Source: an uncultured Ignavibacteriales bacterium
GTDB lineage: Bacteria > Bacteroidota > Ignavibacteria > UBA10030 > SZUA-254
Direction of reading: 5' to 3'
DNA length: 64,000 nucleotides
Assembly (NCBI GenBank): GCA_963714795.1
Contig: CAVQPS010000009.1
Coordinates: 550,709-614,708 of the forward strand
The first letter of the stretch is position 1. Every line of letters starts with the position of its first letter. This document shows positions 33,954 to 41,846 of this stretch, in pieces. Below the pieces are notes generated by a model that made no database searches, was not told where the DNA came from, and saw nothing but the letters and a program-made list of their open reading frames with translations. The translations under genes were made by a program, and so were the position numbers.

Positions 33954-34701
33954 ATGAAAATCGTTGTGTGTGTGAATCACGTTCCCGATACGGAAGTCAA
34001 AGTAAAAATCGGACCGGACGGAAAAGTAATCGATAAAACCGGCGTCAATTTTATCCTCAACCCATACGATGAGTTTGCCATCGAAGCGGCTTTGAAGCTG
34101 AAAGAGCAGCATGGCGGCGAAACGATCGCTTTGTCGTTGGGCGGCGATGTTCATAAAGAAACATTGCGCAAAGCGCTGGCAATGGGTGTCGAGAAAGCCG
34201 TGCTGTTGAAAGACGAAAGCGTCCGCGATTCTTTTTCGATTGCAAAAGCTCTTGCCGAACAATTAAAAACGATGTCACCCGATTGCGTTCTGTTCGGTAA
34301 GCAATCGATCGATTATTATGATGAACAAATTCCCGGGCTTGTTGCGGAATGGTTGGGAATGCCTTCTATTTCCGTCGTTGTGAAATTGGAAGTGCAGAAC
34401 GGCAAGCTTATTTGCGAGCGGGAAATCGAAGGTGGACACGAAGTTGTCGAATCGACCCTGCCGGCAGTCATCTCTGCACAAAAAGGGATTGAACGAGCCG
34501 CGCTACCCGTCGTTGAAAGGAATTATGGGTGCAAAAACAAAACCGATCGAAGAGCGTCAGCCGGTTGCGCAAGCGCCGGTCGTCGAAGTGATCGGGATGC
34601 AAAAGCCGCCGGCAAAACAGCCGGGCAAGATTGTCGGTACGGATGCTTCTGCCGTTCCTGAACTCGTCCGGTTGCTCCACGAAGAAGCCAAAGTTATTTA
34701 A
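33954..34701 (+). CDS. etfB: electron transfer flavoprotein beta subunit, apparent 1-nt indel in an A5 run at 34480..34484
   Basis: 'MKIVVCVNHVPD...' N-terminus. The conserved 'LNEPRYPSLKGIMGAKTKPIEE' segment lies in the +1 frame (ORF 34432..34701). Confidence 0.85.
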
Positions 34702-35712: not shown

Positions 35713-36282
35713 GTGGAAAAAATTCAAGTAGATATTTTAGGACTTTCAACAAGCCCGGCAAGCGGCGGAGCGTATGCGCTCATTCTGAAAGAAGTGAACG
35801 GAAACCGCCGGCTTCCCATCATTATCGGTGCGTTTGAAGCGCAATCGATTGCACTGGAGATGGAAGGTATTAAGCCGCCGCGGCCGTTGACGCACGATTT
35901 GATGAAAAACCTTCTCGAAACACTGGGAGCCGATCTTGCCGAAATCATCATCAGCGAATTGCGTGACGGAACGTTTTATGCGAAACTCAACTTCGACAGT
36001 CAGGAAGTTGATGCCCGTCCGAGCGATGCGATTGCCCTTGCCGTCCGTTTCGGCGCTCCGATTTTCGTTGCCGACAAAGTGATGGATGAAGCGGCATTCC
36101 TTCCGGAAGCCGAAAATCCGGAAATTACCGAAGGGGAGAAACCGGAATCAAAAGGTGTTGAACCGAAACTGACAAAATTGGAAGCTCTTCGTGCGCAGCT
36201 GAAAGAAGCTATTGAGCGGGAAGATTACGAATCAGCAGCGAAATTACGCGACGAAGTCAGAAAAGTTGAACAGCGGCAATAA
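35713..36282 (+). CDS. bifunctional nuclease (DUF151) with a C-terminal UVR motif
   Basis: A DUF151 core followed by the UvrB/C-like helix 'LEALRAQLKEAIEREDYESAAKLRDEV'. Confidence 0.7.
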   Translation: MEKIQVDILGLSTSPASGGAYALILKEVNGNRRLPIIIGAFEAQSIALEMEGIKPPRPLTHDLMKNLLETLGADLAEIIISELRDGTFYAKLNFDSQEVDARPSDAIALAVRFGAPIFVADKVMDEAAFLPEAENPEITEGEKPESKGVEPKLTKLEALRAQLKEAIEREDYESAAKLRDEVRKVEQRQ

Positions 36283-36287
36283 CGTTA

Positions 36288-36998
36288 TCATTTGATCAGC
36301 CGGACCATTTCCCGGACGGCACGTTCTAATCCGACACTCACCGCACGCACAATCACCGCGTGCCCGATACTGACCTCTTCAATTTCCCGGATTCTTGCAA
36401 CCGGTTTGATGTTGTCATAATCAAGCCCATGTCCGGCATTCACAATGAGACCAAGTGATTTTCCGTACAGTGACATCTTTTTGATTTGTTGAAGATGACG
36501 ATTTCGCTCTGGCGCTGATTTTCCGTCCGCATATTCTCCCGTGTGCAGTTCAATCATATCGGATCCGATTTCTTTCGACGCATCGATCTGATCGTTATCC
36601 GGATCGACAAATACACTCACCGCAATTCCTTTATCGTGAAACCGTTTGACTGCTCTTTGCAGCGGACGGCGTAACCGTACGATATCGAGCCCGCCTTCGG
36701 TCGTGAGTTCCTGCCGTTTTTCCGGAACGAGCGTAACAAGATCGGGTTTAATTTTCAGTGCAATGGAAATAATTTCCGGTGTTGCCGCCATTTCCAGATC
36801 AAGTTTCGTTGCGATCGATTTTCGTAATCGGATGACATCATTATCGCGGATGTGCCGCCGGTCTTCGCGTAAATGACAGACGATACCGTCGGCTCCGGCA
36901 CCTTCGGCAACTAATGCCGCATCAAGCGGATCCGGAATAGTGCCGCCGCGGGCATTGCGCAATGTCGCTATGTGATCGATATTGATCGAAAGTCGCAT
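36288..36998 (-). CDS. pdxJ: pyridoxine 5'-phosphate synthase
   Basis: 'LSINIDHIATLRNARGG' and 'VCHLREDRRHI' motifs, 236 aa. Confidence 0.9.
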   Translation of the reverse strand: MRLSINIDHIATLRNARGGTIPDPLDAALVAEGAGADGIVCHLREDRRHIRDNDVIRLRKSIATKLDLEMAATPEIISIALKIKPDLVTLVPEKRQELTTEGGLDIVRLRRPLQRAVKRFHDKGIAVSVFVDPDNDQIDASKEIGSDMIELHTGEYADGKSAPERNRHLQQIKKMSLYGKSLGLIVNAGHGLDYDNIKPVARIREIEEVSIGHAVIVRAVSVGLERAVREMVRLIK

Positions 36999-37001
36999 GA
37001 G

Positions 37002-37943
37002 TTATAGTCGTTTACGAATGATGAATTGAAAGCGTGCCGGTTTCTGGCTGACGATTTTGATTTCTTCGGGACCCGAAAGCTCGGGAACAATTGTTGTGAC
37101 GGAATCCTGATCGAGCTCCTGGTAATTGACCGTTGCCTGAAAATCGGACAGCGATAATTTTGCAAGCTGTTCGATACCGCCGCGCACGATAATATCTATT
37201 TTCGGCGGAATGAAAATGACCTCTCTGTTAAAGGGCGTTCCATTTGCCGTGACCGGGATTCCGACGAAGGTCTTTTCCGCAAACGGCTGGACATTGACCT
37301 GCAACCGCGTAGTCGTTGCCGATACCTCCAGCGAATAATCCGGCGATTCTTCAACCGGCATTATGAGATCGATTGGTGCACGGATATCCTCGAATTTTTT
37401 ATATGCCGTATGCCATGTTGAAATCGAGCGGACGATATGTTCTGTTCCACCGATCGTCGTGCTGTCGGGTGATAAATGAATTGCACCGACCTGCCCGTAC
37501 CCATCATGAAACTCAAGCATGAATTTCGGTTCGATTGGCACGCGCTTTTCCGTATAATCTTCCACCGCTAACACCAGAGAGTCGGGTTTTATATCGATCG
37601 ATTGAAGAGAGAACGGTAATTTGATATGTTCGAAAAGATCTTTGCCTGTGATGATAAAATCTTCCGTTCCGATGGAAGACATGTCGATAAAATATTTAAT
37701 GTCGGGTGTCAGCGATAATCCTGCCAGCAGCCAGCCGGTACCGCGAAAACGAATGCTCATCGTTTTCGGGACCGGATATTTCAATGCTTTGCCATCTTTC
37801 ATGTTTTCCAGGACGACGGGAACCCGCCGCACGACGGTATAGTCATCGCGCATATTGACCGACAGCCACATGACGACGGCGAAGAGGATCGATCCGATAA
37901 CGATATGGTAGCGTTTTTTTTCCATGCAAATAAAAAACTCCAT
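37002..37943 (-). CDS. YbbR/CdaR-like domain protein
   Basis: An N-terminal TM segment followed by repeated 'V..P..V...GW/G' beta-rich modules, 313 aa. Confidence 0.4.
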   Translation of the reverse strand: MEFFICMEKKRYHIVIGSILFAVVMWLSVNMRDDYTVVRRVPVVLENMKDGKALKYPVPKTMSIRFRGTGWLLAGLSLTPDIKYFIDMSSIGTEDFIITGKDLFEHIKLPFSLQSIDIKPDSLVLAVEDYTEKRVPIEPKFMLEFHDGYGQVGAIHLSPDSTTIGGTEHIVRSISTWHTAYKKFEDIRAPIDLIMPVEESPDYSLEVSATTTRLQVNVQPFAEKTFVGIPVTANGTPFNREVIFIPPKIDIIVRGGIEQLAKLSLSDFQATVNYQELDQDSVTTIVPELSGPEEIKIVSQKPARFQFIIRKRL

Positions 37944-37981
37944 CCGTTCATGCCGGGTGGAGTTTTCTTATAGAGCAAAAA

Positions 37982-38596
37982 TTATTTTGGAAATTTTGTT
38001 TTTATCAGGATTTCGATAAGCTCATCGCGGTTCGCGCGGGAAATCTGCCTGCCGAAAATCGGCAGTCCTTCGACGCTTCGCGCGTAATGCCGGAGTTTGT
38101 GCACCGTCATTTCCTCGAGTTGTGTGCGATATGTCTGCTCGTCATCGCTCAGGGGTGGAGTGACCGTCGTCTCCGGTAATTCGCTCGGCGGTTCCGTTGA
38201 ATCTTCAACGGTAGTTTCAATGACTCGTTTCTCTTCGATTTTCTTCGGTGGTCTGCCGCGGCGTTTTGAAGAAACTTCAACTGCTGCCGGTTCTTCGCGT
38301 GGTTTTTCTTTGGTTTGCGACGGCGGAGGATAGATCAGAATTTCCACTTCATCATCGGGTCTGGGAATAACGTGAACCGAAACCAGCTCTCCGACCCGCT
38401 GTGCTGCCGCCGCGCCCGCATCGACAGCCGCACGTACCGCGGCAACATCGCCTTTGAGCTTGATGGTCATCAAGCCGGCGTCGGCGCGTTCCTTGCCGAT
38501 GAGTTCTACATCCGCGGCTTTCGTCGCGGCATCAGCCGCTTCAATAGCGCCGATAAGACCGCGGGTTTCTATAAGTCCTAAAGCGTAATCAAGCAT
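37982..38596 (-). CDS. bacterial microcompartment hexamer shell protein (Pfam00936 domain, PduA/EutM-like) fused to an AT-hook and a Rho-N/SAP-like C-terminal extension
   Basis: The N-terminal 90 aa are 'ALGLIETRGLIGAIEAADAATKAADVELIG...[32 protein letters not shown]'. These are followed by a Pro/Glu-rich linker, 'KRRGRPPKK', and 'LEEMTVHKLRHYARSVEGLPIFGRQISRANRDELIEILI'. Confidence 0.8.
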   Translation of the reverse strand: MLDYALGLIETRGLIGAIEAADAATKAADVELIGKERADAGLMTIKLKGDVAAVRAAVDAGAAAAQRVGELVSVHVIPRPDDEVEILIYPPPSQTKEKPREEPAAVEVSSKRRGRPPKKIEEKRVIETTVEDSTEPPSELPETTVTPPLSDDEQTYRTQLEEMTVHKLRHYARSVEGLPIFGRQISRANRDELIEILIKTKFPK

Positions 38597-38638
38597 ACGA
38601 GTCGACCGTTATACCGGAACCCGGTTCCGGCATTGCGA

Positions 38639-38953
38639 TTATTTCGGTTGCGGCCGTTTGGGAAGAATCAATTCCACATCCGCATGCGGACGCGGGATGA
38701 CATGAACGGAGACGAGCTCTCCGACGCGCTGTGCCGCCGCTGCGCCGGCATCTGTCGCCGCTTTCACCGCGCCGACGTCGCCGCGTACCATCACGGTAAC
38801 ATATCCGCCGCCAATCACTTCCTTGCCGATCAGCGTGACTTTTGCCGCTTTGACCATTGCATCGGCTGCTTCAATAGAGCCGACTAAACCTTTTGTCTCG
38901 ACCATTCCGAGCGCATCGAGCGATATATCTGCCATTAGAAAAACTCCTTTCAA
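38639..38953 (-). CDS. bacterial microcompartment hexamer shell protein (PduA/EutM/CcmK-like)
   Basis: '[30 protein letters not shown]...[35 protein letters not shown]', about 95 to 104 aa. Confidence 0.85.
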
Positions 38954-39323
38954 TCAATGTGAGATGGCATTCCTGTTTCCAAAGACGTGAAACGAATATA
39001 GTGAAATGGGAGCATATTGTCAATTATAGATAATAAATATTCGAGGGTTCTAAACAAAAATCCTTAAAAAACATGTCCGATTTGGTAGATTCTGAATTTT
39101 TTGCTACTATGCTCCACTGTAGAACGTCTGCACGGCAAGGGTGGAGACGATGAAGATTGTGGGTAAGATGGAATCCGGTTAGTTAGATAGTTGGACACCA
39201 CCTTTAAGGTGGAGTCCATCTGGTCTGACCATCTGCCATTGTTATTCTTCATCAATTTTACTATCTTTTGACGGTTACCTTTCTAACTCTTGAATCAGTT
39301 GTTTCCAATCGGAGAACATTCTA

Positions 39324-41846
39324 ATGGCACTCAATAAAACTGCAAAAATCTGGATTATTATTCTCTGCATTCCTGTCGTGCTCATCGTTGCTGCGGGGAT
39401 TGCTGCAAAGCTCTATTTTACCAGCGACCGGTTGAAAGCTTTAGTCGTTCCCAAAATTGAAGATGCAACACATCGCACGGTTTCGGTCGGGGATATTTCG
39501 CTGTCGATTTTTCCTTCGCTGGCGGTTTCGATCGATGATTTGAAAATTTCCAACATGGCGGGATCGTCGTTCGACCGGGATGAATTTATCTCTCTCGACA
39601 ATTTAAAACTGAATGTGAAAATTCTCGAGCTCCTTCATTCGAAGTTAGAAATTGCATATGTCATCGTCAATCATCCGGTGATTTATCTGGAGACGTCCAA
39701 AGACGGCAAGAGTAATTACTCAAGCTCGGCGCAGGGCGAGAAAAGCAATGTCAAAGTTACGGTGACAACCGATAACAGCAGCAGCGGAGCACTGCTTCTT
39801 TCCAATCTCGAAATCAATGACGGCGAGATCGAGCAGGTCGACAAGAAATTCGATGTCCACATGCTGATCAAGGGTTTGCATCAGACCGCAAATGTTGAAA
39901 TGCCGACCGGCGAAAATACATTTTATATAAAAGGATCGACGTCAATCGAATCGTTCAGTTACGGTTCGATGAAGATGTGGTATCTCAGCGATCAGCCGAT
40001 CAATGCCGACGAGAAACTTTCGTATAAAGTGGGCGACGACGTTTTAACCCTCGACGGCGTTACAGTCAAAGTGCGCGATCTTCCGTTGACGATTTCCGGA
40101 TCGGTTTCCCGTTTGACGAAACCTGAATTGATGATGAACATGACCGTTACATCGCCCGGAGCGCAGATGACGCAGCTTCTTTCGATCATTCCGCCGGAGA
40201 TGTTGAAGAAAACCCAGGGACTTTCGAGTTCCGGTGATGTGAAATTTACGATGAACATCAAAGGCCCTTCGAGCGAAACGATGAATCCCGGGATCGACGG
40301 ATCGTTTTCGGTGACGAACGGAAAAGTGCAGTACGCGTCGCTCCCGAAATCGATTACGAATATCAACATTGCCGGATCGTTTGAGAAACCATCCGCCTTG
40401 GTCGGAAACATCGGCGGCGGAAGTTTCGGCATTGAAAAAATGACCGCCACGATCGGCAGTAACGATCTGAACGGCGTCCTGCATGTTTCGAATTTCGGCG
40501 ACCCGACTGTTTCCGCGACGTTTGCCGGTACACTCGTGCTTGATGAAGTGAAAGAATTTTATCCGCTCGAACAGGGAACAGAGGTGAGCGGTGTGATGAA
40601 AGCGAACATTTCAGTCGAAGGGAAACCAAAAACGCCTCAAACATTGAAAGCATCCGGCAGTATCAATTTTCAGAATGTCGTTATCAAAACCGCCGGATCG
40701 CCGAAGCCGCTGAAGAATCTCAACGGCACGATCACGTTCAACAATCAGGTCATCGAATCGAAACAACTTGCAATGAACATCGGTGAATCGGATATGAATC
40801 TTTCGTTCACGGTGAAAAATTACCTCGGCATGGTGATGAATGATGCCGCACAATCGTCGGGCAAGCCGAGCGCAACAGCGACGCTGACATCGAAGCAGTT
40901 ACGCACCGCCGATCTGATGCCCGAACAACAGCCGGCGCCGAAAACAACCGATACGAAAAAACAGGTTCCGGCAAAACCGGCAGGCAGTATGCTGGCAGGA
41001 ATCGACATCGATGCGAATGTTACCGTGGATAAACTGCAGACGGAAAAATTCACATTCACGAATGCAAAAGGAAATGTGACTGTTTCCGGCGGCATCGTCA
41101 ATCTCAAAAATTTCAGTGTGAACGCATTCAATGGAACGATTCAAAGCAAAGGAACACTCGATCTTCGCGATCCGAAAAAGAGTCCGTTCGATCTGACGCT
41201 CGATATCAAGAATGTCGAATCGAATGCAATGCTGTCGAATTTCACGTCGTTCGGGCAATATCTTTTCGGAAAATTTTCAACGACGACGTCGATGAAAGGC
41301 GACTTGAACGACACACTTGGCTTAAACTCACAAACATTGTTCGGGAACGGAACAATCAATATTTCAAACGGCAAACTGAGCGGATATCCGCTGACGCAAA
41401 AACTTGCCGACTTTACAAATCTGGCCGACCTACGGGAAGTGAATTTCAAAGATTGGGCAAATGCATTTTCGATTTCCAACGGACGATTGACCGTCAAAGA
41501 TCTGAAAGTATCGACCGGCTCGACCGATTTTCTTGTGGAAGGATCGGAAGGACTTGACGGCTCAATGGATTATCATGTGAACGTAAAGCTTCCGGCATCG
41601 GCTTCGGATAAAATCAATATCGGCAGCGTCGGCAATCAACTGCTCCAATTCCTGAAAGATAAAGACGGCAGGATCAATCTGCCGCTGACCGTTTCGGGCT
41701 CGAGCGCGAGTCCGGTGGTCGGTCTCGATTCGAAAGCACAGGCAGATGCAACGAAGAATGCTCTCCAGCAGAAAGCGAATGGTCTACAGGACGATTTGAA
41801 AAAGAAAGCGCAGGATGCCTTGAAAAATCTTTTCAAAAAACCGTGA
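39324..41846 (+). CDS. AsmA-family outer-membrane assembly protein
   Basis: 840 aa with an N-terminal TM anchor and a long beta-rich periplasmic region with AsmA-like repeats. Confidence 0.7.
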   Translation: MALNKTAKIWIIILCIPVVLIVAAGIAAKLYFTSDRLKALVVPKIEDATHRTVSVGDISLSIFPSLAVSIDDLKISNMAGSSFDRDEFISLDNLKLNVKILELLHSKLEIAYVIVNHPVIYLETSKDGKSNYSSSAQGEKSNVKVTVTTDNSSSGALLLSNLEINDGEIEQVDKKFDVHMLIKGLHQTANVEMPTGENTFYIKGSTSIESFSYGSMKMWYLSDQPINADEKLSYKVGDDVLTLDGVTVKVRDLPLTISGSVSRLTKPELMMNMTVTSPGAQMTQLLSIIPPEMLKKTQGLSSSGDVKFTMNIKGPSSETMNPGIDGSFSVTNGKVQYASLPKSITNINIAGSFEKPSALVGNIGGGSFGIEKMTATIGSNDLNGVLHVSNFGDPTVSATFAGTLVLDEVKEFYPLEQGTEVSGVMKANISVEGKPKTPQTLKASGSINFQNVVIKTAGSPKPLKNLNGTITFNNQVIESKQLAMNIGESDMNLSFTVKNYLGMVMNDAAQSSGKPSATATLTSKQLRTADLMPEQQPAPKTTDTKKQVPAKPAGSMLAGIDIDANVTVDKLQTEKFTFTNAKGNVTVSGGIVNLKNFSVNAFNGTIQSKGTLDLRDPKKSPFDLTLDIKNVESNAMLSNFTSFGQYLFGKFSTTTSMKGDLNDTLGLNSQTLFGNGTINISNGKLSGYPLTQKLADFTNLADLREVNFKDWANAFSISNGRLTVKDLKVSTGSTDFLVEGSEGLDGSMDYHVNVKLPASASDKINIGSVGNQLLQFLKDKDGRINLPLTVSGSSASPVVGLDSKAQADATKNALQQKANGLQDDLKKKAQDALKNLFKKP

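Follow-up and report, generated by a model that had tools for sequence, protein, structure and literature searches.

Here, we describe a pair of adjacent bacterial microcompartment (BMC) shell genes on a 64,000-nucleotide stretch of the genome of an uncultured Ignavibacteriales bacterium (GenBank assembly GCA_963714795.1, contig CAVQPS010000009.1, positions 550,709 to 614,708 of the forward strand; hereafter the window, in whose own numbering all positions are given). Both genes encode hexamer-type shell proteins (BMC-H), and they are the first two of four consecutive genes on the minus strand, in the order shell gene 1, shell gene 2, a YbbR-like gene and pdxJ. We consider it likely that the two shell genes make up the BMC-H pair of a fragmented microcompartment of the FRAG1 type. 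The features of the shell cassette are:

38995 to 39023, minus strand: promoter of the shell cassette (consensus scan and alignment of upstream regions)
38639 to 38935, minus strand: shell gene 1, predicted canonical BMC-H of 98 amino acids (aa) (PF00936, E=1.2e-29)
38614 to 38630, minus strand: GC-rich palindromic hairpin between the shell genes (read from the sequence)
37982 to 38596, minus strand: shell gene 2 (whole), extended BMC-H of 204 aa (PF00936, E=1e-27)
38333 to 38596, minus strand: shell gene 2, BMC domain, aa 1-88 (PF00936; AlphaFold; alignment of 41 family members)
38147 to 38332, minus strand: shell gene 2, linker, aa 89-150 (predicted local distance difference test score, pLDDT, 43-67; varies across the family)
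37982 to 38146, minus strand: shell gene 2, C-terminal helical domain, aa 151-204, and stop codon (pLDDT 86-90; family conservation)
37932 to 37962, minus strand: intrinsic terminator or attenuator 3' of shell gene 2 (fold energy; conservation in relatives)

An initial annotation of this DNA, made from its letters, had called two consecutive hexamer shell genes on the minus strand, a call that poor PF00936 scores would have refuted, and the scores bear it out: shell 1 matches at 102.5 bits and shell 2 at 96.4 bits against a cut-off of 24.5, each over profile positions 1-75 of 75. Shell gene 1 starts at ATG 38935, which lies behind an AAAGGAG box and is conserved in all relatives, rather than at the TTG at 38953 first assigned to it. 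Its product also exceeds the cut-off of the NCBIfam EutM equivalog model (135.8 bits; cut-off 133), matches PduA (7mmx) with E=9.5e-43, and has standard interface motifs (the lysine of VKAAKV, and IPRPH) and an IGGGY pore. By profile and motifs, shell 1 is a canonical BMC-H of the facet-forming type, and it is probably the major facet hexamer. Shell 2 retains the interface lysine (TKAADV), has the non-standard PRPD in place of PRPH and a RADAGL pore, and is modelled by AlphaFold with pLDDT 83-96 over aa 1-80. Both proteins align collinearly with PduA, EutM and the Haliangium (HO) BMC-H, their nearest solved relatives, and to that extent the earlier description of both as closely PduA-like was apt; it did not cover shell 2 as a whole, which joins an 88-aa BMC domain to a C-terminal extension of 116 aa. 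The 42-bp spacer between the two genes, correctly measured before, holds a GC-rich sequence, CCGGAACCGGGTTCCGG, that is perfectly palindromic and is not followed by a T-run. Spacer length in relatives ranges from 15 to 131 nt, with other GC-rich hairpins in several relatives that have longer spacers and none in those with spacers of 15-26 nt. The inter-shell hairpin might tune the ratio of the major to the extended hexamer.

The window was scanned with Pfam on all 61 called open reading frames (ORFs) and with hidden Markov models (HMMs) on all six-frame ORFs of 40 aa or more. Neither approach found a vertex protein (PF03319), a further PF00936 domain, PduS/PduT, an aldehyde dehydrogenase or PduL in the 64 kb. 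An HMM built from 52 BMC-P genes, whose recovery from other loci served as the positive control, gave no match at E<=10 on any of these six-frame ORFs, and BMC, PduT and PduS queries matched only the two known shell genes. The earlier observation that the 64 kb hold no vertex, tandem-domain trimer or core-enzyme gene is confirmed by these scans, and "satellite shell locus", one of the labels it had offered, is a fair description of true hexamer genes that lack such partners in the 64 kb.

The locus was compared with the published catalogue of BMC loci (Sutter, Melnicki, Schulz, Woyke and Kerfeld, 2021, Nat Commun 12:3809; PMC8217296). In the parts of the catalogue drawn on here, among them Supplementary Data 2, FRAG1 is a set of 57 shell-protein-only, fragmented loci that is most prominent in Ignavibacteria and occurs in Ignavibacteria, Kryptonia, Bacteroidetes, Chlorobi and Rhodothermaeota (PMC8217296). 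FRAG shell genes are described there as scattered over up to six genomic sites, with no recognisable enzymes and no encapsulation-peptide matches. FRAG1 genomes are reported to carry one standard BMC-H, one BMC-H with a long C-terminal extension that ends in an ordered domain and has a non-standard interface motif, and a triplet of BMC-P proteins (green, grey and orange clades); a PduS/PduT pair is present in 24 of the 57 loci and is hence optional (PMC8217296). The catalogue's HMM class for the extended BMC-H is H_teal2c, and its BMC-H tree includes an Ignavibacteria FRAG1 BMC-H of 229 aa (PMC8217296).

What could be compared in the window agrees with this description. Shell 1 is a standard 98-aa protein, and shell 2, at 204 aa, has a disordered linker followed by an ordered helical domain. 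The locus is shell-only, as the window scans show, and scattered, with no recognisable enzymes nearby, and it belongs to the expected taxa: more than 120 full-length homologues of shell 2 of about 200 aa were found, of which those with a named source are metagenome-assembled genomes (MAGs) of Ignavibacteria and Bacteroidota, and the syntenic genome loci are from Ignavibacteria and Bacteroidota MAGs together with one Rhodothermales locus. The exact shell 2 protein of the window has no entry in the contig index, and its close homologues served in its place. The order BMC-H then extended BMC-H is kept in all 23 distinct Ignavibacteria-type loci of a genome scan, in two further loci (L078 and L082) and in the Rhodothermales locus (L027). 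PduS/PduT, present in part of the FRAG1 genomes, occurs here in several relatives (L013, L079-L082 and L085). We assign the pair to FRAG1 because the window agrees with the catalogue's description at every point open to testing there; nothing contradicts membership, with the BMC-P comparison covering 64 kb of this genome. About 30 relevant loci are free of BMC-P genes for 10 kb around the hexamer pair or PduS/PduT, no targeted search having been made, and this absence near the pair fits the fragmentation of this type. The earlier conclusion that the locus fits no described microcompartment type does not hold, since FRAG1, as presented in the parts of the catalogue drawn on, matches it feature by feature (PMC8217296).

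The shell cassette has transcription signals of its own. Its promoter (TTGACA, 17 nt, TATATT) agrees with the consensus at 11 of 12 positions in a consensus scan and lies about 55-60 nt upstream of shell gene 1. The promoter block, TTGACAnTnTGCTCCCnnTTnnnTATATTCG, is kept in each of the 22 upstream regions aligned (those of the window and 21 relatives, from L004-L026), and so near-consensus a promoter suggests that shell protein is abundant and probably made constitutively. The core of the promoter spacer, TGCTCCC, is invariant in these regions, which is unusual for a spacer; it could be a binding site for a regulator. No regulator gene adjoins the cassette, and a search of 36000-39400 against Rfam (E<=1) returned chance-level matches only, all far below gathering scores; neither a riboswitch nor a known leader lies 5' of the shell genes.

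Downstream of shell gene 2, the hairpin CTCCAcCCGG-loop-CGGaTGGAG, followed by TTTTTT, begins 19 nt after the stop codon in the window, in a region that folds at -21.7 kcal/mol. In the 22 relatives in which the hairpin was detected it begins 17-21 nt after the stop, with the basal stem CTCCAyC/GrTGGAG, a run of 6-9 T and compensatory changes in the inner stem. The terminator is accordingly present in the window and in 22 of the 23 Ignavibacteria-type loci, the 23rd (L012) having a hairpin with an interrupted T-run; the consensus scan had flagged only the plus-strand mirror of the hairpin. The basal stem is kept across lineages at 41-93% protein identity, more conservation than terminators usually show. 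Judged from these signals in the sequence, the shell pair is an autonomous cassette with its own sigma-70 promoter and intrinsic terminator.

This autonomy bears on whether the hexamers instead serve a complete, enzyme-bearing main locus elsewhere in the genome as ordinary satellites, for example a MIC4 locus (aldehyde dehydrogenase, phosphotransacylase (PTAC), aldolase and acetate kinase). Satellite BMC-H loci are common, and the window is 64 kb, so that a main locus could sit in the rest of the genome. MIC4 is listed for Ignavibacteria in the catalogue, and Melioribacter roseus combines a MIC4 main locus with FRAG1 components; yet in the parts of the catalogue drawn on MIC4 loci have BMC-H genes of their own, and the standard plus extended pair is filed under FRAG1 and not under MIC4 (PMC8217296). 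The pair is, moreover, kept together with its promoter and terminator across lineages at 41-93% protein identity, which suggests an independent, vertically inherited unit and not the accessory of a patchy main locus, and we consider an ordinary satellite unlikely. A known parallel to the pair is the CcmK3/CcmK4 satellite of beta-carboxysomes, likewise two adjacent BMC-H paralogues with their own transcription signals, away from other compartment genes. That satellite differs in having a defined main locus and known cargo, whereas we know of no main locus for the FRAG1 type, and here one of the two paralogues carries an extra domain.

The extra domain lies at the end of shell 2, beyond a linker of about 60 aa that is rich in proline, lysine and glutamate, predicted to be disordered (pLDDT 43-67) and variable in sequence and length across the family. 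The linker starts with a conserved YPPPxQTKEK motif and contains an AT-hook-like KRRGRPPKK. A conserved DNA-binding AT-hook was considered and rejected, as only 25 of 120 family members share the RGRP core and AT_hook in Pfam matches with no better than E=0.022. The C-terminal domain itself is modelled with pLDDT 86-90 and four predicted helices. Its last approximately 55 residues (consensus MTVHELRRYARSVxGLPIFGRQISRANRDxLIxEL) show 74% column identity across the family, and the helix-loop-helix part, aa 163-204, has a net charge of +5. Pfam Rho_N (PF07498) is matched by each of 20 family members, with E=1e-4 at best and no score that reaches the gathering threshold; the domain of the window scores 18.3 bits (E=0.0023; gathering score 24.9), and its predicted secondary structure fits the helix-loop-helix. 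A profile of the C-terminal domain had no match at E<=10 among PDB sequences. The domain resembles, on this evidence, the Rho_N/SAP-like, helix-extended loop-helix (HeH) type.

A profile search with the domain retrieved 520 clusters (50% identity) at E<=1e-3 among 1.84 billion representative proteins. Among the matches listed, 103 of 108 representatives of at least 160 aa carry PF00936, and those without a BMC domain include one protein with a SPOR domain (P0506) and many short fragments; no Pfam model detects the domain family above its gathering score (proteins P0361-P0510). The C-terminal domain therefore appears to be essentially a BMC-H-specific module, found almost only in BMC-H proteins. 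It also occurs in Latescibacterota (L050, L052, L055-L069, L071 and L072), where a solitary BMC-H of 145-153 aa carries the same domain behind a short linker in a conserved context of a Reg_prop protein, the BMC-H and a sigma-70 family factor; these loci have no second BMC-H and no BMC-P within 10 kb.

In solved shells, BMC-H termini are found on the cytosolic face, and for this reason the C-terminal domain of shell 2 would be expected to project outward. EutK and PduK have a comparable architecture, in which a flexible linker joins a single N-terminal BMC domain to a small, basic domain of helices; they are encoded beside the major hexamer gene, and experimental evidence shows that both control the subcellular distribution of compartments (PMC12487888). 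When eutK is deleted, Eut compartments stay static at the poles of the cell, the basic C-terminal domain of EutK is a proposed nucleotide binder, and the extension of PduK likewise affects compartment positioning (PMC12487888). Shell 2 differs from EutK in that the C-terminal domains are not homologous (Rho_N/SAP-like in shell 2, helix-turn-helix in EutK) and in that EutK belongs to a complete enzyme-containing operon; against the NCBIfam EutK model (NF012010) shell 2 scores 86.6 bits, below the cut-off of 218, over positions 4-105 of 166, a stretch that takes in the BMC part and the beginning of the linker. By analogy, we infer a role in positioning or tethering for the extended FRAG1 hexamer, as a minor subunit that projects outward. 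That the Rho_N/HeH-like domain tethers or partitions compartments by way of nucleic acid is a tentative suggestion, and we would not put it above an even chance.

A domain of nucleic-acid-binding type on a hexamer also raises a use of these proteins outside any compartment, in which they would form sheets, tubes or a nucleoid-associated scaffold by way of the Rho_N/HeH-like domain. The window has no BMC-P gene, nor does any relative within 10 kb of its pair, which is compatible with such a use, as are the window's lack of a PduS/PduT segment, the strong and seemingly unregulated promoter, and, in the parts of the catalogue drawn on, the lack of enzymes and encapsulation peptides for FRAG types (PMC8217296). 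The same catalogue reports the BMC-P triplet for FRAG1 genomes, however, and shell 1 retains all canonical facet-interface motifs, while the PduT and PduS of relatives are typical shell-associated components. We regard a scaffold of this kind as quite unlikely.

Two further genes follow the shell cassette on the same strand:

37002 to 37925, minus strand: YbbR-fold membrane protein, 307 aa from the conserved ATG (AlphaFold and Foldseek)
36288 to 36998, minus strand: pdxJ, pyridoxine 5'-phosphate synthase (PF03740, E=9.5e-100; NCBIfam pdxJ equivalog models)

The YbbR-like gene had been placed 38 bp after shell gene 2 and in a 4-nt overlap with pdxJ, and both distances need correction. The start that the ORF tool chose, at 37943 (313 aa), sits inside the terminator hairpin, and the conserved start is ATG 37925 (MEKKRYH, 307 aa), which leaves a spacer of 56 nt; the stop codon occupies 37004-37002 and the ATG of pdxJ 36998-36996, so that pdxJ begins 3 nt past the YbbR-like stop. 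The identification of pdxJ was sound, and PdxJ matches a 234-position profile over residues 2-235 of its 236, with no terminal extension. The name "YbbR-like" stands by fold but not by sequence profiles. The protein has no Pfam or NCBIfam match even at E<=10, and its AlphaFold model (pLDDT 84.6) shows three beta-rich domains behind a single transmembrane helix near the N-terminus (residues 12-31). The top Foldseek matches of this model are 4qdy (E=7e-8), 5hqh (the YbbR-like domain of lmo2119), 2kq1, 3lyw and 2l3u, and some of its homologues contain PF07949 or are named "YbbR domain-containing protein" by JGI. About 10 cytoplasmic residues precede the helix, and prediction puts the YbbR domains on the extracytoplasmic side.

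CdaR (YbbR) regulates the diadenylate cyclase CdaA, and in Firmicutes the genes form the operon cdaA-cdaR-glmM. The neighbouring 307-aa protein is similar to CdaR in its N-terminal transmembrane helix and tandem YbbR-fold domains. It differs in its genetic context, as neither a diadenylate cyclase gene (DisA_N, cdaA) nor glmM (phosphoglucosamine mutase) is found among the window ORFs and its constant partner is pdxJ, and in not being detected by PF07949. The label "c-di-AMP cyclase regulator" is unsupported for these reasons, the sequence being too divergent for PF07949.

When synteny was compared in relatives, as the initial annotation had proposed, the order BMC-H, extended BMC-H, YbbR-like and pdxJ was found in 23 of 23 distinct Ignavibacteria-type loci and in L078 and L082, although the outer flanks may differ. 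In the Rhodothermales locus the first three genes are kept with gaps of 1 and 11 nt, and pdxJ is absent. Two relatives, L083 (GCA_044449065.1, JBIOHP010000004.1) and L084 (Logan SRR22452313), have the same neighbourhood as the window (asmA, ybbR-like-pdxJ, BFN-etfAB) without the shell genes. At about 4830-4870 in L083 a promoter-like TTGCCT..CCTGCCC..TATATT and a terminator-like hairpin, ACTCCTTCA..TGAGGGAGTTTTT, lie about 45 nt apart, and these remnants look like a deletion scar. The shell-less relatives indicate that the cassette is dispensable and was probably deleted there. In the window and several relatives the terminator lies only 6-20 nt before the YbbR-like start codon; because this leaves no room in the window for a separate promoter after the terminator, read-through into ybbR-like-pdxJ is likely.

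These data also speak to a functional four-gene module of hexamers, YbbR-like protein and PdxJ, whether membrane-anchored, linked to c-di-AMP or sequestering the reactive substrate of PdxJ. Its constant gene order despite differing outer flanks, the tight, terminator-less Rhodothermales cluster and the missing room for a second promoter would favour such a module. Against it, a conserved terminator separates the shell genes from ybbR-like-pdxJ, L083 and L084 keep ybbR-like-pdxJ without shell genes, and pdxJ is absent from the Rhodothermales cluster. Only some 10 residues of the YbbR-like protein would reach the cytoplasm, its YbbR domains being predicted on the other side of the membrane, the window has no diadenylate cyclase gene, and PdxJ has no terminal extension able to act as an encapsulation peptide. 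We judge the module very unlikely, and the earlier proposal that the shell genes form a functional operon with a c-di-AMP-cyclase regulator and pdxJ was not upheld. A compartment with PdxJ as its cargo was likewise rejected, since PdxJ lacks a terminal extension, the Rhodothermales cluster lacks pdxJ, and ybbR-like-pdxJ persists without shell genes. The link is positional and not functional, given the cassette's own promoter and terminator and the two relatives that keep ybbR-like-pdxJ alone; as far as the evidence supports, the YbbR-like and pdxJ genes are long-standing positional neighbours of the shell pair with no demonstrated microcompartment role.

The FRAG1 reading also invites a look at cargo, for which the clues lie in relatives, outside the window. 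In the close relatives L013 and L082, a PduT-like protein (two BMC domains) and a PduS-like flavoprotein (Complex1_51K, SLBB, Fer4_17 and RnfC_N) are encoded 5 kb from the pair, toward asmA, in a four-gene segment between the shell pair and asmA that holds an aminotransferase, phosphoenolpyruvate (PEP) carboxykinase, PduS and PduT (L013 4377-9122; L082 5634-10552). The PduS/PduT pair lies elsewhere in L079-L081 and L085. In three of seven contexts (L079, L081 and the contig carrying P0329) it adjoins molybdenum enzymes of the xanthine-dehydrogenase (XDH) family, and the remaining four contexts differ. In L079 and L081 it sits inside a cluster resembling ygeW/ygeX/ygeY/hyuA/xdh, of a purine/pyrimidine-catabolism-like kind, with an amidohydrolase, PreT/PreA-like reductases, a PALP enzyme, an M20 peptidase and OTCase-like proteins, and in L079 also carbamate kinase. 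As a clue to FRAG1 cargo the XDH-family neighbours are suggestive only. The catalogue, in the parts drawn on, proposes a role with xanthine for another type, BUF1, in Firmicutes (PMC8217296). Since XDH-family and purine/pyrimidine-catabolism genes are the only enzyme genes that recur beside FRAG1 components, we raise a speculative and rather improbable scheme of a constitutive FRAG1 compartment (or an open scaffold, if the genome has no vertex proteins) that would be tethered to nucleoid or RNA by the previously unnamed, BMC-H-specific Rho_N/HeH-like domain and would carry out redox degradation of N-heterocycles, with electrons passing through the PduT pore. If true, the chemistry of the compartment would not be classical aldehyde metabolism.

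More generally, as parts of a FRAG1 microcompartment, the hexamers of shell 1 and shell 2, supplied in abundance and probably constitutively by the strong promoter, would assemble with a BMC-P triplet encoded elsewhere, joined in many genomes by a PduS/PduT electron-transfer pair that is also encoded elsewhere, into a closed shell around cargo. The C-terminal domain of shell 2 would project to the cytosol and position or partition the compartments, perhaps through nucleoid or RNA binding by analogy with EutK and PduK, and in the window ybbR-like and pdxJ would be transcribed with the shell genes only by read-through of the terminator.

Several points weigh against this interpretation. The FRAG1 assignment was made from architecture, taxonomy and context and not from the catalogue's HMM classes or BMC Caller, and the defining BMC-P triplet, assessable within 64 kb of this genome, was absent there and from every relative locus examined. 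The window interval corresponding to the PduS/PduT segment of L013 and L082, 38954-39323, is 370 bp of non-coding DNA without it. For the C-terminal domain, the Rho_N match is below the gathering score and no solved structure matches by sequence, and it is we who infer both nucleic-acid binding and outward orientation. The closeness of the terminator to the YbbR-like gene makes co-transcription by read-through likely, and some functional link with the YbbR-like and pdxJ genes is possible; the Rhodothermales locus, without a terminator, looks like a tight BMC-H, BMC-H, YbbR operon.

The remainder of the window is of housekeeping character by Pfam: a dcw cluster (mraZ to murG), dapA, dapB and dapD, pyruvate kinase, serS, CTP synthase, kdsB, ABC transporters, ksgA and a P-type ATPase. 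The neighbours of the shell genes are etfB/etfA, a BFN_dom (formerly DUF151) nuclease and asmA, in agreement with the earlier naming of etfBA, a DUF151 nuclease and asmA. The etfB gene (33954-34701, plus strand) seems frameshifted at 34480-34495: residues 1 to about 180 lie in ORF 33954-34661, and the conserved C-terminus, KGLNEPRYPSLKGIM...EEAKVI, lies in the +1 frame in ORF 34432-34701. EtfB is intact in relatives (248 aa), and the frameshift is either a sequencing or assembly error or the mark of a pseudogene.

Few protein organelles are as poorly understood as FRAG-type microcompartments, whose shell genes have no known cargo, substrate or regulation. The window does not present a new kind of locus, and orphan shell pairs in Ignavibacteria would be better labelled FRAG1 in annotation than taken for a new system. 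It offers instead testable handles on FRAG1, several of which go beyond the parts of the catalogue drawn on here: a conserved promoter and terminator, a Rho_N/HeH-like domain specific to BMC-H proteins, constant YbbR-like and pdxJ neighbours, and relatives without the pair. Among these handles are a strongly promoted, self-contained cassette that is cleanly deleted in some relatives, a link to the YbbR-like and pdxJ genes that is positional only, and PduS/PduT found repeatedly beside xanthine-dehydrogenase-type enzymes. Along with them, the BMC-H-specific HeH domain, with its 520 clusters, suggests a module of general use in positioning or tethering, by analogy with EutK.

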